From positions 1 to 63,369 of the forward strand of contig JAICWV010000002.1 of NCBI GenBank assembly GCA_025966365.1: DNA of 63,369 nucleotides, read 5' to 3'. The translations under genes and the position numbers were made by a program. Below, piece by piece: positions 5,340 through 16,443 of this stretch; the first letter of the stretch is position 1; each line of letters opens with the position of its first letter. Below the pieces are notes generated by a model. It did no database searches, was not told the origin of the DNA, and saw nothing but the letters and a program-made list of their open reading frames with translations. This stretch comes from Chloroflexota bacterium (GTDB lineage: Bacteria; Chloroflexota; UBA5177).

Positions 5340-6269
5340 TTACGAGGCGCCGGTACCGGCTTCGGGCGCCAGCTCCTGGGCCGGTTGCCGGATCTGCGAC
5401 TGCCCTGCCGGCTCGAGACGGTGGGTCCAGATGAGCCAGGCTGCCAGGAGCCAGAAGGGAACGGTGCCGAGCAGTCCGACGGGCGGGCGCAGAAGGGAAT
5501 CGCCTTTTGAGAGCAGCAGGGCCACGACGGTCGCCTGGCCATTGATGGCGGCGTGGAGCAGCACGCCCGGCCAGACGCTGCGTGTGTGGAAACGCAGCCA
5601 GGCCAGGATGATGCTGAGCGGGACGGTGAAGAGGAGCATGGCGAAGATGCCCGCGATGGGATAGCCGGGGAAGTTGTACCCGTCCAGCGCGATGAGCGGC
5701 GCATGCCAGAACCCCCAGATGATGCCGACAATCACCGCGGCCGTGACCCCGCCAAGCGGTGCCAGGCGCGGGAGGAGGTAGCCCCGCCAGCCGAACTCCT
5801 CGCCGAAGGTGAAGATGACGTTCAAGACGATGGCCACGCTCAACGAGTTGGCGGCGCCGGTCCAGAACGTCACCCAGGCCACGTACAGCTTGGTCTCGCC
5901 GGGCGGAAGATGCCCGATGGGAAGCTGGTGAGCGAGACGGTGGATGTTGGCATCCAGAGCCCAATGCTGTTCCTGTGTCAGAAGCGCCAGAAGCACGCCC
6001 AGTGTCATGAGCACGGGTGCGATGAGATAGGCGAGGCCGTAGTACTTCCAGTGCATGAGGTTGAGGCCACCGCCCGAATCGCGGAATCCGTCCTGCAGCA
6101 AGGGACCGCGCACCAGATACGCGGCGATGGCCGGCGCGAACATCGCCAGGGCGGCCCGCGTCAGCAGGTTAATGCCAAATGGCCGCAAGCCGATCTCGAC
6201 CAGCCAGGCGAGGCCGAATGCCAGCACGAGGAAGACGGCCACCCCCCGCCAGCGGATCTGCACCTGCAT
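5340..6269 (-). CDS. CPBP family intramembrane glutamic endopeptidase (CAAX protease-like)
   Basis: Polytopic. EEFGWRGYLLPRL and FWHAPL motifs. Confidence 0.8.
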   Translation of the reverse strand: MQVQIRWRGVAVFLVLAFGLAWLVEIGLRPFGINLLTRAALAMFAPAIAAYLVRGPLLQDGFRDSGGGLNLMHWKYYGLAYLIAPVLMTLGVLLALLTQEQHWALDANIHRLAHQLPIGHLPPGETKLYVAWVTFWTGAANSLSVAIVLNVIFTFGEEFGWRGYLLPRLAPLGGVTAAVIVGIIWGFWHAPLIALDGYNFPGYPIAGIFAMLLFTVPLSIILAWLRFHTRSVWPGVLLHAAINGQATVVALLLSKGDSLLRPPVGLLGTVPFWLLAAWLIWTHRLEPAGQSQIRQPAQELAPEAGTGAS

Positions 6270-6275
6270 GGGCGG

Positions 6276-7571
6276 CTAGGGGTACTGACTGCCGACGACG
6301 ACGACGATGCGCGCGCTCTGACCCGGCACGGTGCGGTGCACCAGATCGGCATTCAGCACCCGCTGCAGGCGGCGGGCTGTATACTCGCCGTCCCCGCCGG
6401 TCGCGGTGTTCACGATGACCTGCGTGCGCGTATACGTAGTCGCGTCGGCGTTTCCAGCGCCCACGGTATGGAAACCAAGTCCGGAGAGGAGCCCCTCAGC
6501 ATCGGATGCCGCGCCCGGCGTCGTGCTTCCATTGAGCACCATCACCGGCGTACGCTCCATCGCAATTTGCGGATCCGAGAAGAGCCGGTGGACCAGATTG
6601 GGGATGACGGTGCTGTTGGTCGGGGTGAGAATCGACTGCCCGTCATCGCTCCAGCCCGTCTGCACCATCCCGTTTTCCATATTGATGTAGGAGTGGTTCA
6701 CGCCTCCGTGGGCCAGAAGCATCTGCGCCGCCATCTCCGGCAGAGCGTTGAGGGGAATGTCGGTGATCAGCCCCTTTTCCAGGGTTCCGAGGATGGCGGG
6801 GTATCGCGGCCAGGTAGACGGGGACATCAGCTGGCGCTTGAGCGCTTCACCGAACGCCTGCTGATCCTTGACCCGGGCCAGATCCTGCTGGGCAAAGGCA
6901 TGTCGCTCGCGCACGAACTCGAGCGCCGTCGCACCGTCCATGTGCTGCACGCCGGGCTTGATGTCGATGGGGCAGTAGTCATATCCGACGAGGCAGGGGT
7001 AGGTGGGGTCCCTGAGCTCCTGAGGCACGTTCACGGTGACGCCTCCCATGGCGTTCACCAGTCGGGTAAAGCTCTTGAAGGTGAGGGCAACCGAATAGTC
7101 CACCGGAATGTTGAGATCCTGCTCCAGCGTGTACGCGGCCAGGCGCGGCCCCCCGATCTCGTACGCAATGGCGAGCTTTCCCTCACCGTAGCCCGGAATG
7201 TTCACCCAGAGATCGCGCGGCACCGAGAGCTCGTTGATCCGGTGATGGGCAGGGTCGATGTCGATCACCAGGAGGGTGTCCGTCCGCGCCGGCTCCGTGG
7301 TCCGCTGTGTCAGGCCCATGGCCACCACGGTGATACGGTCGTGGCCGTTCCAGGGGACGAGCCCGGGCTGCGGCTTGAGGACGACGGCGCTGAGCGCTTC
7401 CAGCACCCGGGGATCGAAGAGCAGAACGCCAACGGAGAGGACGCTCACCAGCAAGAAGATCAGGCAGAATGCCAGGAGGCGCCGGATGACCCGCCCCACG
7501 GCAGGGCGGGGCCGGGAGGGCGATTCTACCAGGGAAAGATCAGGGGTGAGGGGGGCCGTCTGCGCAGACAT
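6276..7571 (-). CDS. LCP (LytR-CpsA-Psr) family cell-envelope phosphotransferase
   Basis: N-terminal TM, DTLLVIDIDP...LSVPRDLWVNIPGYGEGKL core, C-terminal LytR_C-like VMVLNGSTTPGAA. Confidence 0.85.
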   Translation of the reverse strand: MSAQTAPLTPDLSLVESPSRPRPAVGRVIRRLLAFCLIFLLVSVLSVGVLLFDPRVLEALSAVVLKPQPGLVPWNGHDRITVVAMGLTQRTTEPARTDTLLVIDIDPAHHRINELSVPRDLWVNIPGYGEGKLAIAYEIGGPRLAAYTLEQDLNIPVDYSVALTFKSFTRLVNAMGGVTVNVPQELRDPTYPCLVGYDYCPIDIKPGVQHMDGATALEFVRERHAFAQQDLARVKDQQAFGEALKRQLMSPSTWPRYPAILGTLEKGLITDIPLNALPEMAAQMLLAHGGVNHSYINMENGMVQTGWSDDGQSILTPTNSTVIPNLVHRLFSDPQIAMERTPVMVLNGSTTPGAASDAEGLLSGLGFHTVGAGNADATTYTRTQVIVNTATGGDGEYTARRLQRVLNADLVHRTVPGQSARIVVVVGSQYP

Positions 7572-7626
7572 GCGAGGGGATTATAGCGTTGACCGCTGGC
7601 GCCATGTCTGGCATGTACAGTGAGCC

Positions 7627-9255
7627 GTGACGATCGAGCGCTTTTTCTCCAACGTGCCGGAAGAGGCGCCTGCCCTGGCCGGAGGGATCCTGGCTCCCGT
7701 GCTGGCGCTGCAGGGCGAGCAGGCGCGGCCGGGTTTCCGCATCACCCTTTTTGGAGCGGTCAAGACGGGCAAGACGGGCATGCTCAATCGCTTGCTCGGC
7801 ACCTCCGTCGTGCCCGAAGATGCGCTCAAGACCAAGAGCTGGATCACCACGGTGGCACACAATGCGGTGCCGTCGGCCATGCTGAGGATGCGGGATGGCT
7901 CGGAGCGCGCCGTGCCGTTCGATGAGCTTCAACGGTCCCGGCGGGAGTGGAGCGATCGCGAGGTAGGCGAGGTGCGGATCGGCGTGCCTCATCCCGTCCT
8001 CTCCGGAGGAATCACCCTGGTAGACACGCCGGGCCTGCTGGCAGACGAGGCAGCAACCGAGATCACATATGGGATGCTGGAGCGAACCGATCTGAGCATC
8101 ATGGTGCTGGCCGCCGACAAGATCCTCTCCGGTGAGGAGCGAGCCGTCGCCGCCTACGTCCACGATCTGCTCCACGGCAACATTGTGTTTGTGGTCAACC
8201 GCATGGATCTGATCAACGAGGAAGACCGTGACGATGTCCTCGCGTGGGCCTCCGCGGCGCTGAGCGGCCTGGGAAACTCGCTCCTCGGCCAGCCCCGTAT
8301 CCTGATCTCGGGCAGGTCCGGAGCCTATGCCGGGAGGGAGAGTATTTCTGCCTGGCTGACTGCTTTCTCGGAATCCGGCCCGGTGCAATCGGTTTCTACC
8401 CTCTCCCGATCGAGCGTCCTGGGCCACCGGCTTTCCCGCGCCGTCCGGTCGCTGCAGGAGGGACGAGGGGCCGCGGTGGGGCGCGCCAATGAGGCGCGTA
8501 TGCGGCATCTGGAAAGCACCATGCGCGAGCGCGCGGTCAGACGTCGGGCCGTGGGTGACGCGCGGAGGCAGCTGGACGTTGCCCGCGTGGAGATTGCAAG
8601 CCTCAGGCCGTCCTTCATCTCCCGGAGCATCCACGATACCAGCGAGTCGATACGTGGAAACCGGGCATCGTTACCCGTACGGCTGCAGCTCGAGGGCGCT
8701 ATCACTACCTATGCGGATGCCGTCAACGATCGGGTACGAGATGCGGTCATGGGAGCACCGGTCAACGCTCCACCCTTCGACCTTCGGACGTGGCTCTTCC
8801 GTCTGGATCTGAACGCCCGGCCCGACCCTGTCGGCAGCATCGGCAGCACCTTCGGGGATCTTTTGACCCATCCACTCGATAGTGGCAAGAGCGGCCGGGA
8901 AGCGGGTGAGGCACTCGGATCCTGGATCAGCAAGAACGTGCTGGGGAAGGATGCCGAGATGGAGATGGAGCAAGAAAGCGAACGGCTGGCCCACACCGCC
9001 CTGGTCTCGATCGAGGCAGAGGTCGATCGCTACTTTTCTGGTCTCTCCACGCTTCTGGACGAGGCAGACTCGTTCTACGAGATCTGGGTGCCTGCTGCCC
9101 CCGTGGTGGACGCGGCAGAGGAGGACGAGCGGTGCTGGGCGGTGGTGCTCCAGTGGGCCCAGGGGTTCGAGCGTGCCGCGCGGCGAGCGGCGGATGAGTC
9201 GCTCACGCCGTTGTCGCGAGAGGCGAGCGAGCCGCCTCCATCAGACCCGCGTTGA
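7627..9255 (+). CDS. Dynamin-like GTPase (DLP-A)
   Basis: GTG start. G1 GAVKTGKTG, G3 LVDTPG, G4 VVNRMD, followed by a long helical stalk-like C-terminal region. Confidence 0.8.
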   Translation: MTIERFFSNVPEEAPALAGGILAPVLALQGEQARPGFRITLFGAVKTGKTGMLNRLLGTSVVPEDALKTKSWITTVAHNAVPSAMLRMRDGSERAVPFDELQRSRREWSDREVGEVRIGVPHPVLSGGITLVDTPGLLADEAATEITYGMLERTDLSIMVLAADKILSGEERAVAAYVHDLLHGNIVFVVNRMDLINEEDRDDVLAWASAALSGLGNSLLGQPRILISGRSGAYAGRESISAWLTAFSESGPVQSVSTLSRSSVLGHRLSRAVRSLQEGRGAAVGRANEARMRHLESTMRERAVRRRAVGDARRQLDVARVEIASLRPSFISRSIHDTSESIRGNRASLPVRLQLEGAITTYADAVNDRVRDAVMGAPVNAPPFDLRTWLFRLDLNARPDPVGSIGSTFGDLLTHPLDSGKSGREAGEALGSWISKNVLGKDAEMEMEQESERLAHTALVSIEAEVDRYFSGLSTLLDEADSFYEIWVPAAPVVDAAEEDERCWAVVLQWAQGFERAARRAADESLTPLSREASEPPPSDPR

Positions 9256-11260
9256 GGCGTCGCAGCTCGGCCGCGATGGCATCCAGCCGAAGCTTTTCCG
9301 CCGCCACCGAAAACTGTTCATCGCGCTTCTGCTGCAGAATGCGTTCCTGCTCGGCGCGTGCCTCGTCGATCTGCGTACCGATCATGCCGGCGATCCGCTC
9401 TGCGAACTGCTGAAATCGCTCCTCGACGGCGCCGTGGACGAACGCCTGTCTGTCGTTCACTTGATCCCGCAGGGCCTCGAAGAGCCGCTCCCCCAGCTTC
9501 TGCCGGACGCGCCGCTTTATCTCACTCTCGCTCAGTCCTGCCTGGATGACCTCCACCAGAATCGTGCTCATCAGAAGGCTGGTTCTCATGAAGGTGCTGA
9601 TCAGGTACCCGATGATCGATTGCTGCACCAGCCGGCCCAGGACACTGTTCAGGTCACCGAGCGACAGCACATCGTCGGTGATCCCGGCAACCTCACTCAG
9701 AGAGAGCGCGAGCTGAAACGGGGCGCCGGTTTCGCTCCGGGCGCGATCTCGGCGTGGGGTCCCGGCAAAGGCGGCGGCAATGCGATCCAGCTCCAGCTGC
9801 AGATCGCCGATCTGGGCCTCGACCTCCGCCAGGAGTGCTGCAACCGTGCTCTCAATGGCGCCAGGGATTTTCTCAGACCAGGCAGTGAAGCTCACCTGGA
9901 CGTAGCGCTGTACCTCCTCGCTGATGGCGGCCGCGATTCGCTGCCTCGTCTCCGGCTGGGCATAGGCCATGAGGACGTTGCGCAAGGAGAGGGCTGAGTC
10001 GAGGTCCATGAGCCGATGCGAATCCTCGTCCCAGGTTTCCGGCAAGGTATCCACGAACGCCCGCAAGTCGGCGAAGACTTTCTGTTTGACGACGTCCCCA
10101 AAGCGCAGAACCGTCCGTTCCGTCTCGCGCTTACGGTCCTCGAGCGCGTGCAGGTGCCGCTCCGCGACTTCACGGCGCACCTCGAGCTCCTCGACAGGCG
10201 CATCGAGCGCGGACCGCGCCTGTGTGATCCGTTCCAGAGCTCCGGCCATGACCGGCTGAAGCGCCTGTGTCGTTGATTGAAGAATGGCTGCGACCCTTGC
10301 CTCCGTGGTGAGAAAGTGCTCCAACTCCTGCTCCAGGGCTGGAACGCCGCTGGCCGCCAGGGACTCCTCGTCGTGAGGAATCGTGCCGCGCGCCTCCAGC
10401 GCCCCCCGCGCGTTGAGGAAGGAAACCCGCCGCCGGTAGAGGTCGACATCGAAGGTCCCGTCCCCGCGGGTGAAGTGAGATTCCAGCTGGGACCGTACCC
10501 ACTCCTCGATCTCCGCCCTGCTCCCCGGATCAACCTGATCGATGCGATTGACCACAAAGAAGACGTGATCGAGCCGTCCCTCGCCGAGCATGCTCTCGAT
10601 AAAGACGCGCTCGTCGCGGGTCAGGATACGGGTGGCGTTGAGCACCACGATGATAGCCTGGGAGCGCTTCAAGAAGTTCGTCGCCACCCGCGTGCGGCTG
10701 ACGTGCTCGCCGAGACCGGGAGAGTCAATGAGCTTGACGCCGTGGGCGCAGAGCGCATGGTCCCGCTCCATCTCTGCGTACTCGACGCGAGCAAAACGAT
10801 CCACACTGCCGTGTTCCTGGATGGTTTCCTGGTCCTGCGGCGTGAGCTGGAACTCGCGCACGAACTCCTCCCAGCTGACGGAGCGCGGCTCCGCCCGTCC
10901 GCTTTCGTAAATGGCGACGTCTTCCCGGTGGCCGTAGACCAGGGCCGTGATGATGGCCGTGGCCGGGGCCGCCTTGGCCGGCAGTGTTTTGGTGCCCAGC
11001 ATGGCGTTGAGCAGGGTGCTCTTGCCGTTTTTGAACTCGCCGACCACGATGATCGTGAAGAGTCCCTGCCGCAGATCGCGGGCACGGGCCAGGAGCGAGG
11101 CGGCGTCCTCGCGCAGTCCCAGACCGGGAGTCACGGACGAGCCGTCGGGAAGTACCATGGGCTCGCCGCCGGCCTCCCCGATGAGCGTGGCCATTCCCTC
11201 CAGCGAGCGGGCCACGGCCTCGGTTGTGCTTCTGGCCGCTCCGTAGCCACTACCGGTCAC
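9203..11260 (-). CDS. Dynamin-like GTPase (DLP-B)
   Basis: G1 GEFKNGKST, G3 LIDSPG, G4 VVNRID. Hydrophobic paddle-like segment LVQQSIIGYLISTFMRTSLLMSTILVEVI. Its start overlaps the upstream gene's stop by 4 nt. Confidence 0.85.
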   Translation of the reverse strand: MTGSGYGAARSTTEAVARSLEGMATLIGEAGGEPMVLPDGSSVTPGLGLREDAASLLARARDLRQGLFTIIVVGEFKNGKSTLLNAMLGTKTLPAKAAPATAIITALVYGHREDVAIYESGRAEPRSVSWEEFVREFQLTPQDQETIQEHGSVDRFARVEYAEMERDHALCAHGVKLIDSPGLGEHVSRTRVATNFLKRSQAIIVVLNATRILTRDERVFIESMLGEGRLDHVFFVVNRIDQVDPGSRAEIEEWVRSQLESHFTRGDGTFDVDLYRRRVSFLNARGALEARGTIPHDEESLAASGVPALEQELEHFLTTEARVAAILQSTTQALQPVMAGALERITQARSALDAPVEELEVRREVAERHLHALEDRKRETERTVLRFGDVVKQKVFADLRAFVDTLPETWDEDSHRLMDLDSALSLRNVLMAYAQPETRQRIAAAISEEVQRYVQVSFTAWSEKIPGAIESTVAALLAEVEAQIGDLQLELDRIAAAFAGTPRRDRARSETGAPFQLALSLSEVAGITDDVLSLGDLNSVLGRLVQQSIIGYLISTFMRTSLLMSTILVEVIQAGLSESEIKRRVRQKLGERLFEALRDQVNDRQAFVHGAVEERFQQFAERIAGMIGTQIDEARAEQERILQQKRDEQFSVAAEKLRLDAIAAELRRLNAGLMEAARSPLATTA

Positions 11261-12990
11261 GATCTCGCATCTCCCGCAGCCGGTGAGATCTGCTCGCGCA
11301 GGCGGGGAAGCCGCTCGCGGACGATAGCCGAGACCTGCTGCCGCCGGGCGGCCAGATCCTCCGCGTGCGCTTCTCGCTCATCGAGTAATGCCAGCAGGCC
11401 TTCCATTCCCTGGCGGTAGACGTCGGCCACCTCCCGCTCCAGTTGCGCTGTCAGCGCCGTGAATTGCTCATCCATGCGCTGCTTGATCTCCTGCTCGACC
11501 TGCCGCGTCGCGGCCAGCGCCGAGGCCGTCAGCGCCTGCGCCTCCGCTTCGGCGAGATCGGCGCGCCGCACCCGCTGAACCACCTGGCTGGCGAGCAGGG
11601 ACAGCACCCCCAGCGGCGGCGAGAAAAAGAGCATGAAGAAGCCGTTGAAGGCCAGCCCACGGGCGATGTTTTCCGCTCTCCGCTTGGCGCGCCTCGGCAT
11701 GACAAAGACGTGGACCCCCGCCGGATCGCCGCCGAGGTCCCATTCCGCGGTCAGCACCGGCTGTCCCACGACGGCCAGCAGCTCGCGGAAATCGGCGTCG
11801 ATCATGACCGCCACCTGCGCTTCCTCGGCCTCGAGATCGCCTCGCATGGCAACCATCTGACGACGCAGGAAGTCGAGCCACACCGCTTCGATATAACCCG
11901 GCAGGTGGCGCCTGGCGACGGCGCTGTCGTTGATCGACCGGATCTCCTCCGGCAGACGGTTCCGGAGTGCGGCGCCAAAGTTCTCGATGCGCCGCTGCAG
12001 GGTCTCCCGCAGCAGTGTCTCCACCCATGCTCTGATGCGCCGCTGCGTTCGCTCGACGCGCTGTTCCAGCCACTGCTGTTGCCCGGCTATGCGGTCGCGG
12101 GCGCCTTCCACATCCGACGCCTCCAGTCCGTAGAGCACCTCGAGCCGTGCTGCCGTCACCACTAGCTCTTCGACCAGCGCCGCAGCCGTGTGCTGTAGTC
12201 CCCGGGTGCGAACCGGCTCACGCCGCTCCAGCACGTCGTCCAGCAGGGTCTCGAGCGTCCGGTGTTCGTCTCCCCCCTGCGCAGTCTCGCGGAGCGACAG
12301 GTCAATCACGGCGGGACGGCTCTGAAACGGCCCCAGGAATGTCTGTACCAGCTCCAGAAGAGAGGCACGCTCCTCCTCGGGCACCAGGTCCATATGGTTG
12401 ACGACAACGGCCACCCGCTCCAGACCGAGCTTCGGGACCAGCTGGTCGCGCACAAAGCGCCGTTCGACGTCTGAAAGGAGAGCGGACGCGTTGAGCAGAA
12501 TCATGACGTAGTCCGAGCTCGCCAGAAGCTCGCGCCATGACTCGGGGCTTCGCTCCGCTTCCATCGGCTCGATATGGAGGTCGCAGAGGGCGAGCAGCGG
12601 GGCGGGCGCTTCAATCTCAATTCGTCCCGGCACGGCATCGCCGTCGAGGAGAAGTTCACGGAGCTGAGATGAGGAAACGGCAACCCTATCGCCGTTGGGA
12701 TCCACGCGCGTCACCGAGACTGCATCGCCGTGCTGGATATCGATGCCGAACGGCGCCTTGGGAATGGCGGAGACCGGTACGAGGTCGGCTCCCAGCAGCA
12801 GATTGACCAGCGTTGCTCGCCCGGAGCCGGTCGGGCCCACCACCCGCAGCTGCAGTCGAGAGGTCTGCTTGTGGGCGAGTACTGCCTCCACTGCCTGCGC
12901 CACCACTCGGTCTCCAAGATCCGCCGCCATGGCCGCGATCTCATCCAGCGCCGAGGCAATCGGGGACGAAGCGGACGCGGCCGAGGTCAC
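11257..12990 (-). CDS. Dynamin-like protein with degenerate GTPase motifs (DLP-C)
   Basis: G1-like GPTGSGRAT (Arg in place of the P-loop Lys). The G3 position reads CDLHIEP. G4-like VVNHMD. Hydrophobic segment GLAFNGFFMLFFSPPLGVLSLLA. 4-nt overlaps with both neighbours. Confidence 0.75.
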   Translation of the reverse strand: MTSAASASSPIASALDEIAAMAADLGDRVVAQAVEAVLAHKQTSRLQLRVVGPTGSGRATLVNLLLGADLVPVSAIPKAPFGIDIQHGDAVSVTRVDPNGDRVAVSSSQLRELLLDGDAVPGRIEIEAPAPLLALCDLHIEPMEAERSPESWRELLASSDYVMILLNASALLSDVERRFVRDQLVPKLGLERVAVVVNHMDLVPEEERASLLELVQTFLGPFQSRPAVIDLSLRETAQGGDEHRTLETLLDDVLERREPVRTRGLQHTAAALVEELVVTAARLEVLYGLEASDVEGARDRIAGQQQWLEQRVERTQRRIRAWVETLLRETLQRRIENFGAALRNRLPEEIRSINDSAVARRHLPGYIEAVWLDFLRRQMVAMRGDLEAEEAQVAVMIDADFRELLAVVGQPVLTAEWDLGGDPAGVHVFVMPRRAKRRAENIARGLAFNGFFMLFFSPPLGVLSLLASQVVQRVRRADLAEAEAQALTASALAATRQVEQEIKQRMDEQFTALTAQLEREVADVYRQGMEGLLALLDEREAHAEDLAARRQQVSAIVRERLPRLREQISPAAGDARS

Positions 12991-13910
12991 GGCTTCACAA
13001 TCTGGTTCGTGAGCCGGTCCAGGTCGATCTGGTTGAGCAGATCGGTCCCCGGTGGCGGCTCCTCACCCTTGAGGTCGTAGTAGATCTCCGATCGGGCGAA
13101 CAGGCGTAGCGCCTCGATGCGTTTGGGGATCAGGGGATGCGTGATAAAGATTTGCTGCCAGCCGGAAGCGCCGTGGTAGTCCGCCATCTCCCGATAGTGC
13201 CGCAGATAGTCGTCAATATCGACCTGCTCGACGTCCGCGAACCCGGCCACCAGCCTGATCAGCGCCCGCTCGGCCGTATGAAGATCTCCACAGCAGAGGA
13301 GCCCGGCGCGATCGGCCGTCACCTCCGACCGCCGCGACCAGGCCCGGAGCGGAATGCCGGCAAAGCGATGGACCACATGCCCGATCGGTCCCAGGATGGG
13401 CAGCGCCAGGTCGAGCAGCACCGCGACCAGGGTGTGGTAGACCATGTGACGGGCCGCGATATGACCGCATTCGTGCCCGATGACAAACTGCGCTTCACCG
13501 GGTGAAAAGTACTTGAGAAGCGCATCGGTGAGAAAGACGAACTGGTACTCGTCGGTTCCGGCGGTGAAGGCGTTGAACTGCCCACCGAAGGAGCCGCAGA
13601 GCGAGTGCGGCGCCGCGATACCCAGGGTTCGGGCGCAGTCCTGCGCAATCGCGTACAGCTCGGGGAATGACTTCTGGTCGATGGGAATTCCCTGGGCCAG
13701 AAACTGCCCCATCTGCACCGAGATAAAGGTGTCGAGCGCCTTATCGAGCACGTTTCTGACCGGCGCCGATTCCAGTGCCCGCAGGATCCAGCCGTCTACC
13801 GGGTGCGCATAGGGTGGCGCCGTTTCGTCGTCCGACAGGCCGCGCCACGCGCGCCAATCGATGTAGTCCTGGAAGGATATGATGCGGATGTCGGGTTCTT
13901 GCGTGACCAT
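12987..13910 (-). CDS. M48 family zinc metallopeptidase
   Basis: HExxH as GHECGHIAARH, with a downstream glutamate in SEVTADRAG. Start placed at the internal ATG (MVTQEP) because the longer ORF would overlap galE. Confidence 0.8.
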   Translation of the reverse strand: MVTQEPDIRIISFQDYIDWRAWRGLSDDETAPPYAHPVDGWILRALESAPVRNVLDKALDTFISVQMGQFLAQGIPIDQKSFPELYAIAQDCARTLGIAAPHSLCGSFGGQFNAFTAGTDEYQFVFLTDALLKYFSPGEAQFVIGHECGHIAARHMVYHTLVAVLLDLALPILGPIGHVVHRFAGIPLRAWSRRSEVTADRAGLLCCGDLHTAERALIRLVAGFADVEQVDIDDYLRHYREMADYHGASGWQQIFITHPLIPKRIEALRLFARSEIYYDLKGEEPPPGTDLLNQIDLDRLTNQIVKP

Positions 13911-13938
13911 GGGCGCGTCCCTTCCTGCGCGGTGGTTC

Positions 13939-14946
13939 TTAGGAAGCGCTGCTCCCAACCGGCTCCGGGGTGGCATACCCGCGGGGGTGTTTCCGTTGCC
14001 ACTCCCAGGCAGAGCCGACGATGGTGTCGAGGTCGCTATGGCGCGGCTCCCAGCCGAGCGCCGCCCGGATCTTTCGGGCATCGGCCGTCAACTCTACCGT
14101 ATCGCCCTCGCGGCGCTGCCGGATCTCGATGGGGAAATCGACTCCGCTGATGCGACGGAGGGAGTTGATGACATCCCAGTTGCTGTGCCCCACGCCGGTG
14201 CCGACGTTGAAGATGTCGCTGGTGCCGCCACCCGTCAGGTGGTCAAGTGCGGCGACGTGCGCAGAAGCGAGGTCAAGTACGTGGATGTAATCGCGGATGC
14301 AGGTTCCGTCAGGGGTAGGGTAGTCATCTCCGTAGAGTGGGAAGACGGGAATGATGCCCAGCGCGGCCTTGATGGCGACGGTAATGAGGTGCGTGGCGGG
14401 CTCATGATCCTGACCCATGGAGCCATCCAGGGCGGCACCGGCGGCGTTGAAGTAGCGCAACGAGACGCTGCGCATCCCGTGGACGCGATCGTACCAGGGC
14501 AGAATCCGCTCCACGATCAGCTTGGTCTCGCCATAGGTGTTGGTGGGCACGGTCGGCGCCGTTTCCGTGATGGGAAGCCTGGCGTCATCGCCGTACACCG
14601 CGGCCGTGGAGGAGAAGACGACGGTCTCGATCCCGTGCCGCCTGGCGGCGTTGAACAGGTTGATGCTGTTGGAGACGTTATTGGTGAAGAAAGGGCCGAC
14701 ATCTTTCATCGACTCGCCGGCCTCGATGGAAGCGGCCAGGTGCACGATGACGTCGAAGCCGTGAGAGAGGGCGGCGTCGAGGGCGGTGCTGTCGCCGAGA
14801 TCGGCTACCACCAACTCGGCATTGATCGCCTCACGGTGGCCGTAGCTCAGATTGTCGTAGACGACGACCTCGTGGCCGGCCTCCTGAAGCGCGCGGGTAG
14901 TGAAACTGCCGATGTATCCGGCTCCGCCGGTCACGAAGACACGCAT
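13939..14946 (-). CDS. galE: UDP-glucose 4-epimerase
   Basis: VTGGAGYIGS Rossmann motif, YGETK catalytic motif, 335 aa. Confidence 0.9.
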   Translation of the reverse strand: MRVFVTGGAGYIGSFTTRALQEAGHEVVVYDNLSYGHREAINAELVVADLGDSTALDAALSHGFDVIVHLAASIEAGESMKDVGPFFTNNVSNSINLFNAARRHGIETVVFSSTAAVYGDDARLPITETAPTVPTNTYGETKLIVERILPWYDRVHGMRSVSLRYFNAAGAALDGSMGQDHEPATHLITVAIKAALGIIPVFPLYGDDYPTPDGTCIRDYIHVLDLASAHVAALDHLTGGGTSDIFNVGTGVGHSNWDVINSLRRISGVDFPIEIRQRREGDTVELTADARKIRAALGWEPRHSDLDTIVGSAWEWQRKHPRGYATPEPVGSSAS

Positions 14947-15413
14947 TACCGCTTCCTCTTTCCACGGAGCCGCTCGGGCCGCTGTCTGGCGGCGCGCTGC
15001 GGCTCACGGGGCTTCGATGCTGCCGGGCGATAGCGCCGCTGGGCGTCGGCCTCCTGCAGGCGCCAGACCGCCAGCGGATAGCGCTCGCTGCGATCGTAGA
15101 CGAAGTAAGCGGCCACGATGATCATGGCCAGGACCAGGAGATACATCCAGAGTGGCATGTCGAGATAGTCGAACTGTACATAACGTGCGGCCACCAGCAC
15201 CAGACCGATGACGGAGGTCCACATGCCCGCCCTGGTGAGGCGGCGAATGAAGCGCCGTGCCACGGGGTTCCGGGGAGCGAGCTTGCCCCGCCGCCAGTAC
15301 GCAAAGGCGGATGCCAGGAAAATGATCGCGAAGACGATCGGCACGATGATATACGCCGACGGCGGATTGTCCACCGGTGATGTGGTCATGAAGTTCCAGG
15401 AGAAGAGATTCAC
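14946..15413 (-). CDS. Small integral membrane protein, unknown function
   Basis: Three hydrophobic helices and a basic C-terminal tail. Its stop shares one nt with the galE start. Confidence 0.55.
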   Translation of the reverse strand: MNLFSWNFMTTSPVDNPPSAYIIVPIVFAIIFLASAFAYWRRGKLAPRNPVARRFIRRLTRAGMWTSVIGLVLVAARYVQFDYLDMPLWMYLLVLAMIIVAAYFVYDRSERYPLAVWRLQEADAQRRYRPAASKPREPQRAARQRPERLRGKRKR

Positions 15414-15594
15414 AGTGACCTCGAAAGCATGATTACGCGGGAGCCAATTTGGTCTTCGGAAGGCCCGGCTCCGGACCGGAGAAGTCTACCACTCTGACGC
15501 TAGTCGCGACCCCAACCTGTAGCGTGAATCGGATGAAGTACCGGCCAATTGCTGCGCACCGCGATCGGAAGGTGAGGCAGAAATTTCTGTTTGG

Positions 15595-16443
15595 CTACGT
15601 CCTGGTGTACAGCCCCATCACCAGACGCATGGCCCAGTCTCGAACCCTGGTGGGGACGAAGCGCTCGAGGGTGGCAAGCCTGGCAGCGGCGGTGATGGTG
15701 TAGCGAGCGCGCGGGTGTTCGGACTGGACGGCGCGGAGCACGGTGCGGGCCACAGACTCTGCGGAGCGACCGAACCACCCCGATCGGTCATGGACGGCCG
15801 TGTAGCGCCGGAAGTAGGGGCCGTACGCTGACCCCTCGGGAGCCGCACGCACCACGGAGCGTCCGAAGTGGGTTGGAATCGGGCCCGGCTCGATCAGCAC
15901 CACCTCGATGCCAAAGGGCGCCAGCTCCAGCCGAAGGGCGTCACTCATCGCCTCCAGGGCGAATTTGGACGCGCTATAGGCACCGGTGAAGGGCGTGGAA
16001 ACGCGGCCGGCCGCGGAGCTGAGATTGATGATTCTCCCCCGGCGCCGCGCTCGCATCCCGGGCAGGAAGGCTTGAGTGAACGCCAGCAGGCCGAAGACAT
16101 TGACCTCGAAGAGACGGTGCAGCGCATCCTGCGAGATGTCCTCCATCGCGCCCATCAGCCCGTAGCCCGCATTGTTCACCAGAACGTCCACGCCGTAGCC
16201 GTCCGTTGCGCGCATCACCGCCTCGGCCGCGGCCGAGCGCGAGCCCTCATCGGCAATATCCAGCTCGACCGGCACGATCTCCCAGCCCTTGTCCTGTCCT
16301 TCATCGGATAGCGATTGAAGATCTGACCGTGTCCGGGCCAGCGCAATGACCCGATACCCCGCACGTGCGAGCTCGATCGCAGTGGCACGGCCGATCCCGC
16401 GCGACGCCCCGGTAACGGCGGCGATCTGCGCCCTAGTCCCCAC
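15595..16443 (-). CDS. SDR family oxidoreductase
   Basis: TGASRGIGRA and YSASKFAL motifs. Start set at the GTG at 16443 just before the glycine motif; the start is uncertain. Confidence 0.8.
   Translation of the reverse strand: MGTRAQIAAVTGASRGIGRATAIELARAGYRVIALARTRSDLQSLSDEGQDKGWEIVPVELDIADEGSRSAAAEAVMRATDGYGVDVLVNNAGYGLMGAMEDISQDALHRLFEVNVFGLLAFTQAFLPGMRARRRGRIINLSSAAGRVSTPFTGAYSASKFALEAMSDALRLELAPFGIEVVLIEPGPIPTHFGRSVVRAAPEGSAYGPYFRRYTAVHDRSGWFGRSAESVARTVLRAVQSEHPRARYTITAAARLATLERFVPTRVRDWAMRLVMGLYTRT

Follow-up and report, generated by a model that had tools for sequence, protein, structure and literature searches.

A candidate M48 metallopeptidase and dynamin-like protein module in a Chloroflexota bacterium, and its recurrence across bacterial phyla

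The roles and regulation of bacterial dynamins are poorly understood, and the known systems consist of pairs or fusions of dynamin-like proteins (DLPs) without enzymatic partners. DynA of Bacillus subtilis acts in membrane stress and phage resistance, while mycobacterial IniA is the product of a stress-linked membrane DLP operon; both proteins act in membrane integrity. As exemplified by DLP1/2 of Campylobacter jejuni, DLP pairs form heterotypic membrane-tethering complexes. In mitochondria, the M48 peptidase OMA1 acts on the dynamin OPA1. Here, we describe a locus at positions 7627-13910 of a 63,369-nt stretch of DNA (hereafter the window; contig JAICWV010000002.1) from a Chloroflexota bacterium, in which the gene of an M48 zinc metallopeptidase lies together with those of three proteins of the dynamin type, named DLP-A, DLP-B and DLP-C.

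The dynamin system of anti-phage defence (Eleos) was described in a preprint as two consecutive DLPs whose P-loops are both required, with approximately 60% of its occurrences adjoining defence genes (Millman et al. 2022). The bacterial dynamin-like proteins (BDLPs) of cyanobacteria have been sorted into the KGK, HSR1, chaperone and Tandem A/B clades in a study whose main text makes no mention of a protease (Jilly et al. 2018); its Data Sheet S1 lists, with no comment, Cal7507_5390, a 'peptidase M48 Ste24p', beside a dynamin gene. In the RdcA/RdcB-DgcE system of E. coli, a dynamin-like GTPase docks with a partner membrane enzyme and thereby controls it (PMC6510439). Full-text literature searches, whose coverage excludes subscription journals, returned no description of a bacterial M48-dynamin unit, in agreement with a preliminary description of the locus, made from its sequence, which knew of no characterised pairing of this kind. 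The M48-DLP module is, apparently, undescribed so far.

Our favoured reading, which we give about an even chance of being correct, is that the four genes form a self-contained module capable of horizontal transfer, and that the M48 protease, located at the membrane surface, is physically a subunit of a heteromeric assembly of DLPs. The M48 protein offers a testable regulatory or effector partner of DLPs, and the module would provide a natural pseudo-GTPase-GTPase heteromer for the study of DLP pairs. Cultured carriers include Sorangium/Polyangium, Fischerella, Butyricicoccus pullicaecorum DSM 23266 and Murimonas intestini DSM 26524.

Recurrence and fusion of the M48 and DLP genes

The four genes and their junctions are as follows:

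12987-13910, minus strand: M48 zinc metallopeptidase, 307 aa (open reading frame (ORF) map, Pfam Peptidase_M48)
11257-12990, minus strand: DLP-C, predicted dynamin-fold pseudo-GTPase, 577 aa (ORF map, Pfam, AlphaFold2 (AF2)/Foldseek)
9203-11260, minus strand: DLP-B, canonical BDLP-type dynamin, 685 aa (ORF map, Pfam, PDB match)
7627-9255, plus strand: DLP-A, dynamin-family GTPase, 542 aa (ORF map, Pfam)
12987-12990, minus strand: GTGA stop/start overlap of M48 and DLP-C (direct sequence reading)
11257-11260, minus strand: GTGA stop/start overlap of DLP-C and DLP-B (direct sequence reading)
9203-9255, both strands: convergent 3' overlap of DLP-A and DLP-B, 53 bp (ORF coordinates)

The layout given in the preliminary description is confirmed. 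The ORF map and Pfam agree on the minus-strand order (small membrane protein, galE, M48, DLP-C, DLP-B), motif reading confirms the HECGH of the peptidase, both of the proposed 4-nt stop/start overlaps read GTGA, and the ORF coordinates place the third DLP, DLP-A, on the plus strand, converging upon the others. The longest M48 ORF extends to 14081, and the start was placed at 13910 by means of orthologues and gene calls on relatives.

The recurrence of this gene pairing was assessed by using an M48 alignment to search 185,579 species, each represented by a single genome. This returned 352 relatives of the M48 subfamily, and the neighbourhoods of the best 80 of these 352 loci were analysed, with DLP detection by phmmer and an iterated hidden Markov model. 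Among the 76 informative loci, which have at least 1.5 kb of DNA downstream of the M48 gene, 72 possess a same-strand DLP gene whose start lies downstream of M48 by less than 500 bp; the remaining four comprise one locus with the DLP 2 kb away, one ORF-calling artefact and two with no DLP (L053 and L055). The carriers belong to at least six phyla, including Chloroflexota, Cyanobacteria, Bacillota, Bacteroidota and Myxococcota, and none of the best 80 loci is alphaproteobacterial. Overlapping or closely spaced stop and start codons join M48, DLP-C and DLP-B, and the -3 spacing between M48 and the downstream gene recurs at several other loci, in Chloroflexota and beyond. M48 homologues at 70% and 53% identity, from a JGI metagenome, Microcoleus and an 11-Mb Chloroflexia metagenome-assembled genome (MAG), are accompanied by the same succession of M48, a gene of ~575 aa with no Pfam match, a DLP and a further DLP. 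The orthologous third DLP, DLP-A, also travels with the module, being collinear in other phyla and convergent in Chloroflexota, where the 3' overlap with DLP-B is shorter in the two relatives of the window that were checked (17 bp at 13701-13717 of locus L001; 21 bp at 9076-9096 of L007). That M48-DLP coupling is widespread is strongly supported by these gene neighbourhoods.

The two partners also occur in a single chain. A DLP-C profile search against 1.84 billion representative proteins returned 86 representatives at E <= 1e-30 and, in addition, brought up protein P0259. This protein, of 906 aa, combines Peptidase_M48 (86 bits) with Dynamin_N (100 bits), and its use as a query revealed three further fusions (P0297-P0299; 888-901 aa; 52-54% identity to P0259). 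All four are metagenomic, diverged and encoded on separate contigs, the latter three also deriving from separate sources, and all four have kept HExxH, the Glu ligand, GEFNHGKS and DTPG. The fusion locus L089 and an unfused Sorangium pair (L090, CP012672.1) have the same upstream genes, encoding an HflX-like GTPase and an APH kinase, which indicates that the fusion arose from adjacent M48 and DLP genes. In two Sorangium-type loci, the DLP is followed by a 242-aa gene without a Pfam match (L090:7937-8665 and L091:3510-4238), and a 280-aa gene occupies the matching position after the fused gene (10747-11586 of L089); the gene at this position may be a further component of the Sorangium-type variant.

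Five architecture classes were distinguished among the analysed loci:

Class I (window type): M48, DLP-C with GxxGSGR, DLP-B and DLP-A, collinear or convergent; Chloroflexota, Ktedonobacterales and several cyanobacteria
Class I' (putative pseudo-protease subclade): pseudo-M48, DLP-C, DLP-B; Nostoc foliaceum, Okeania and Caldora (M48 genes at L020:10001-10906, L023:10001-10906 and L027:1248-2159)
Class II: M48, P-loop-less DLP-C, DLP-B, a two-transmembrane (two-TM) protein of ~172 aa, DLP-A; Bacillota, Bacteroidota and Gastranaerophilaceae
Class III: M48 and a single DLP with a canonical GEFNHGK[ST] P-loop; Myxococcota and some Chloroflexia
Class IV: one or two upstream DLPs, M48 and a DLP, all canonical; other cyanobacteria

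In class I', the M48 protein has lost the first His of HExxH (GRECGH or GCECGH) as well as H155 and the H258-P259 motif. The gene still precedes DLP-C-like and DLP-B-like genes in Nostoc foliaceum and Okeania, while the Caldora contig ends just past it. Judged by its missing zinc ligand, this cyanobacterial M48 is a predicted pseudo-protease that has been retained. Taken together, the Rosetta-stone fusions, the translational coupling and the retention of both a dead M48 and a dead DLP-C suggest that the protease is a physical subunit and not a mere neighbour.

The opposite view would be that M48 is an ordinary quality-control protease of the HtpX kind, whose position ahead of a dynamin operon is due to chance or to merely transcriptional reasons. 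The window operon does carry the unrelated galE and small membrane protein genes upstream; however, the M48-DLP adjacency holds at the 72 loci across phyla while other neighbours vary, natural fusions exist, and the window M48 lies far under all HtpX equivalog cut-offs and is devoid of an N-terminal transmembrane pair. The comparative data effectively refute this juxtaposition, which we consider highly improbable. The proposal of the preliminary description that M48 and the DLPs form one functional unit is supported by the survey and reinforced by the fusions.

A number of loci carry additional features. The gene of the conserved ~172-aa two-TM protein separates the DLP-B and DLP-A slots in Bacillota and Bacteroidota, and some cyanobacteria carry it behind DLP-B (examples at L031:14591-15148, L050:14693-15226 and L023:15124-15666). 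The protein has the appearance of a fifth component of the module; a search of the window for a homologue gave none at E <= 10. Directly upstream of M48, many Bacillota loci encode a conserved protein of ~260 aa with no Pfam match and, by eye, a C-terminal helix-turn-helix-like sequence (L021:8980-9768, L028:9070-9858, L048:8599-9405), which may be a dedicated regulator. In Prevotella and Paludibacter, three tandem M48 paralogues (HELGH, HELGH/HEIGH and HECGH) precede the DLP genes (L032:8285-10828, L040:8130-10828). In Microcoleus, the protein of the DLP-B slot (L003:11695-15123) has 1142 aa and contains Dynamin_N twice, as an internal fusion similar to DynA, and DLP-A at the same locus is followed by a translationally coupled gene of 203 aa. 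In a Symbiobacteriaceae MAG, the gene immediately preceding M48 encodes a Fic/DOC-domain protein (L019:8911-9666). A cyanobacterial variant containing the orthologue of the crystallised Nostoc BDLP was ruled out, the match being merely 120 bits.

The protease and the three dynamin-like proteins

The M48 protein is recognised by Pfam Peptidase_M48 (PF01435) at 94 bits, against a gathering cut-off of 20.3, and has the following features:

13461-13475, minus strand: HECGH, M48 residues 146-150 (motif reading)
13308-13325, minus strand: third zinc ligand E196, in EVTADR (motif reading)
13290-13295, minus strand: Cys pair C206/C207 (alignment)
13368-13448, minus strand: sole hydrophobic stretch, residues 155-181 (Kyte-Doolittle 19-residue maximum 1.98)

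The features that mark M48 membership, i.e. the PF01435 match, HExxH and a downstream Glu ligand, are all present, and an alignment of 51 M48 homologues shows HECGH, E196 and C206 to be invariant and C207 nearly so. The AF2 model (predicted local distance difference test (pLDDT) 80.8) has its best PDB fold matches in ZMPSTE24/Ste24, followed by HtpX and BlaR1, while the nearest solved relative by sequence profile is the HtpX fragment 3CQB (E 2e-8). The protein is nonetheless outside HtpX proper, its best score against the NCBIfam HtpX equivalogs being 42.6 bits (cut-offs 245-422). Some loci contain long M48 ORFs of 423-690 aa, in which an extra domain or a fusion was considered and rejected, as Pfam gives the M48 domain only.

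The hydrophobic stretch follows the HExxH helix and precedes the Glu ligand, and most homologues possess a comparable stretch at the corresponding position. Hydropathy reveals no N-terminal hydrophobic segment, and a soluble N-terminal region of ~130 residues is conserved in the homologues. Since the zinc ligands flank the stretch and must share one membrane face, it would form a re-entrant or in-plane anchor. We infer that the active site is thereby brought to the cytoplasmic surface of the membrane, which is also the location of the DLP paddles.

DLP-C, the partner encoded immediately downstream, departs from the canonical GTPase pattern:

12814-12837, minus strand: degenerate P-loop GPTGSGRA (motif reading)
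12388-12399, minus strand: NHMD, resembling G4 (motif reading)
11575-11658, minus strand: hydrophobic paddle, residues 445-472 (hydropathy)

In GPTGSGRA, Arg replaces the P-loop Lys and Ala replaces the Mg-binding Ser/Thr. There is no DxxG, CDLHIEP standing at the G3 place, and NHMD is the sole G4-like motif, such that canonical G1 and G3 are both absent. Three ORFs with dynamin G motifs had been reported in the preliminary description; this is correct for the 542-aa DLP-A and the 685-aa DLP-B, whereas the 577-aa DLP-C has neither GxxxxGK[ST] nor D[TS]PG. The family assignments divide in the same manner, Dynamin_N being supported for DLP-A and DLP-B and Peptidase_M48 for the protease, while DLP-C scores 23.8 bits with Dynamin_N, under the gathering score of 27. 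The paddle-like segments reported for DLP-B and DLP-C are both present by hydropathy.

The predicted fold of DLP-C is clearly that of a dynamin. Its AF2 model (pLDDT 72.8) consists of an α/β domain followed by long helical bundles and a disordered tip, and this low-confidence tip corresponds to the hydrophobic segment 445-472. Foldseek comparison of the model with the PDB returned IniA (3e-16), Nostoc BDLP (4e-15), mitofusins (~1e-11) and the C. jejuni DLP pair; the predicted structure thus combines the G-domain and helical-bundle fold with a paddle, as expected of a dynamin. R58 is invariant in 16 orthologues, down to 32% identity, and the orthologue motif in Chloroflexota, Ktedonobacteria-like genomes and cyanobacteria is always GxxGSGR, with a next residue that is usually not Ser/Thr. 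The gene that fills the DLP-C slot in Bacillota and Bacteroidota lacks a P-loop altogether while preserving the remaining G-domain scaffold. The invariant Arg P-loop and the P-loop-less gene together suggest that the degenerate site is selected for and is not decaying. By motif and by model, DLP-C is a predicted conserved pseudo-GTPase with a dynamin fold.

DLP-B and DLP-A, in contrast, have complete motif sets:

11018-11041, minus strand: DLP-B G1, GEFKNGKS (motif reading)
10715-10726, minus strand: DLP-B G3, DSPG (motif reading)
10538-10549, minus strand: DLP-B G4, NRID (motif reading)
9545-9616, minus strand: DLP-B hydrophobic paddle, residues 549-572 (hydropathy)
7753-7776, plus strand: DLP-A G1, GAVKTGKT (motif reading)
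8023-8034, plus strand: DLP-A G3, DTPG (motif reading)
8197-8208, plus strand: DLP-A G4, NRMD (motif reading)

DLP-B matches Dynamin_N (PF00350) at 80 bits (gathering cut-off 27) and the helical family PF21808 (Dynamin-like_hel_bact) at 66 bits (28.3), the latter not being detected by Pfam in DLP-A or DLP-C. It aligns over its full length with Nostoc BDLP (2J68, E 5e-44), and its second-best PDB match is chain A of 5OWV. DLP-A matches Dynamin_N at 46.5 bits (27) and is also above threshold for MMR_HSR1; among PDB sequences, it matches chain C of 5OWV best, and hydropathy indicates no hydrophobic paddle. Two predicted active GTPases would thereby stand beside one pseudo-GTPase.

The mechanism we prefer, in which our confidence is moderate, is that of a protease scaffolded or gated by DLPs where the membrane is perturbed. 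DLP-C, bearing a membrane paddle and made in a fixed ratio with the protease, would serve as the M48 adaptor, while the paddle-bearing DLP-B and the paddle-less DLP-A would be the active GTPases of the assembly. Upon perturbation of the bilayer, the DLPs would assemble on the cytoplasmic face of the membrane and concentrate or gate the M48 protein, whose active site would be held at the membrane surface by the re-entrant hydrophobic segment. Remodelling or repair of the bilayer could thereby be coupled to the cleavage of membrane-associated proteins, possibly the DLPs themselves.

Self-cleavage of this type leads to the question as to whether the DLPs are the main substrate. In an OMA1-OPA1-like switch, stress-activated M48 would cleave its own DLP partner, for example to remove the paddle, and so shift the state of the assembly. 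The M48 membership of the protease, its intact catalytic residues at nearly all loci, its obligate genomic pairing with DLPs, the predicted position of both active site and paddles at the cytoplasmic membrane surface, and the mitochondrial precedent are all consistent with such a switch. Nevertheless, the stable one-chain fusions and the retained zinc-ligand-deficient M48 suggest a structural partnership and not simply that of an enzyme and its substrate, no candidate for a conserved cleavage site emerged, and the nearest solved M48 relatives by sequence and fold are HtpX and Ste24. We therefore regard the switch as possible, if on the doubtful side. A broader version is likewise tentative: by analogy with mitochondria, the module could be a protease-gated dynamin machine, a prokaryotic OMA1-OPA1 counterpart with a pseudo-GTPase adaptor, in which, on membrane damage or phage attack, M48 cleaves or activates the DLPs or, alternatively, their GTP-driven assembly activates M48. 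The scaffolded or gated protease, OMA1-like processing and a role in defence are compatible with one another.

Genomic setting and the question of defence

Upstream of M48, two further genes belong to the operon:

14946-15413, minus strand: 155-aa membrane protein with three hydrophobic segments (ORF map)
13939-14946, minus strand: galE (ORF map, Pfam)

The neighbours across the window are of a housekeeping nature (acyl-CoA metabolism, holA, a CPBP protease, an LCP protein, galE, a short-chain dehydrogenase/reductase, a NUDIX hydrolase and a sugar ABC transporter), and the whole window arrangement is syntenic in related MAGs. DLP-A is adjoined by genes for the CPBP/Rce1-like intramembrane protease (5340-6269) and the LCP (LytR-CpsA-Psr) protein (6276-7571), an arrangement which is syntenic in the close relatives L092-L094 and not in more distant carriers. 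A promoter and terminator scan of 7000-16000 gave no operon-end signal above shuffled expectation, and an Rfam scan of the whole window gave no match.

The preliminary description had raised an Eleos-like defence module, in which the DLPs would sense or counter phage-induced membrane events with M48 as effector or activator. There are grounds for this suggestion: DLP-B has weak full-length homology to the PADLOC LeoA and LeoBC models (47 and 39 bits), DLP-A has a partial match to LeoA (56 bits), and the Eleos/dynamin system likewise comprises two consecutive DLPs. These scores, together with the 22 bits of DLP-C with LeoBC, were read without PADLOC's own thresholds and, as sequence matches go, appear to be at superfamily level, although an automated call of Eleos from them is conceivable; the M48 protein has no match among the PADLOC v2 models. 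Eleos comprises a pair of DLP genes whose products each have a functional P-loop, both needed in the system that was tested, whereas the module consists of four genes, one of them for a protease, and the P-loop of DLP-C is degenerate and predicted not to work. Given the different composition, the dead P-loop and the superfamily-level scores, we do not file the module under Eleos.

The genomic distribution bears on the same question. The module is sparse, occurring in ~0.2% of species across phyla, and the five-gene form is common to gut Bacillota and Bacteroidota, which suggests horizontal transfer and would also suit a defence system. The two-gene M48 and DLP form, however, is present in dozens of Sorangium strain genomes, the two examined Polyangia loci being syntenic, and relatives of M48 are absent from phage records and essentially absent from IMG/VR. 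No defence island is apparent, the setting being housekeeping in the window and in close relatives. A Pfam/PADLOC scan of 131 flanking ORFs from 28 loci, which is underpowered and not a proper enrichment test, found no family in more than two members and no recurring defence family, the PADLOC matches listed being dominated by PD-T4-6 models; with no recurring family in the flanks, nothing outside the module appears to be conserved.

Plasmids yielded only M48 relatives at 29-35% identity, with no dynamin gene annotated in the two contexts inspected. One of these relatives, on plasmid pTthSNM3-3c of Thermus thermophilus (L086:8658-9948; 30-35% identity), lies directly after an HNH-endonuclease gene in a setting of HEPN, toxin-antitoxin and type I-U CRISPR genes, and has no dynamin gene nearby. 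In the 11-Mb Chloroflexia MAG, a gene for a protein of more than 900 aa combining EAD7 and dynamin is found past the module, after an insertion sequence element (L005:17206-18924 / L015:18206-20921). Both settings fit a role in defence. On the other side, the housekeeping neighbours, the synteny, the presence in Sorangium, the absence from phage records and IMG/VR and the lack of a PADLOC match speak for a physiological membrane role. The Eleos-like assignment is not supported, and we consider a defence role related to Eleos unlikely.

Several points weigh against the membrane-surface protease as a subunit of a DLP assembly. Physical contact between M48 and the DLPs is deduced from fusions and gene order only; we infer complex formation, topology, trigger and substrates alike. 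The hydrophobic segment of M48 was judged on hydropathy alone, and AF2 confidence is moderate in this region (pLDDT 63-72). Finally, the patchy phyletic distribution and the distant M48 relatives in Thermus plasmid defence islands would also fit a role in conflict.

Comparison with known systems

With Eleos, the module has in common the consecutive dynamin-like genes and the remote homology of its DLPs to the LeoA/LeoBC models; it differs in its added protease and third DLP, its one dead P-loop and the lack of a defence-island context in the window. DLP-B resembles the BDLP of Nostoc punctiforme (2J68/2J69/2W6D) in its G domain, helical neck and trunk and paddle, and the two align over their full length. 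At 154 bits, however, it is not an orthologue, and the partner described for the Nostoc protein is a second DLP (Tandem A) and no protease. As DLP-A matches MMR_HSR1 above threshold, the module may correspond to the 'HSR1 clade' of Jilly et al., the succession of a cyanobacterial BDLP and an HSR1-type GTPase perhaps representing the DLP-B/DLP-A part of the module.

The C. jejuni DLP1/DLP2 pair (5OWV/5OXF) likewise comprises adjacent, unlike DLPs, for which a hetero-oligomer is to be expected, and DLP-B and DLP-A match chains A and C of 5OWV, respectively. Both C. jejuni proteins are active GTPases, with neither a protease nor a third DLP, whereas the module partner is a predicted pseudo-GTPase. 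IniA (IniA/IniC; 6J72) is the best structural match of the DLP-C model, at the E value of 3e-16 given above, yet IniA binds and hydrolyses GTP, and the iniBAC operon contains no M48 gene. DynA, too, unites two DLP units in one machine, for which the two-G-domain protein in the DLP-B slot of Microcoleus offers a parallel; nevertheless, DLP-B and DLP-A score 38 and 17 bits with NCBIfam NF052648, against a cut-off of 1600, and DynA has no dedicated protease.

On the protease side, HtpX (M48B) shares the HExxH...E arrangement with a hydrophobic insert between the ligands. The module M48 is distinguished by the absence of the N-terminal transmembrane pair, by a single hydrophobic stretch in place of the four transmembrane helices of HtpX, by its HECGH...CC signature and by its soluble N-terminal region of ~130 residues. 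OPA1 is not of the BDLP type, and the module M48 possesses no full transmembrane helices; the likeness to OMA1-OPA1, which is an analogy only, is that of an M48-family protease functionally tied to a dynamin-superfamily membrane remodeller at the membrane surface. In this respect, the module provides a bacterial system in which to ask whether the control of dynamins by proteases, as found in mitochondria, holds more generally.

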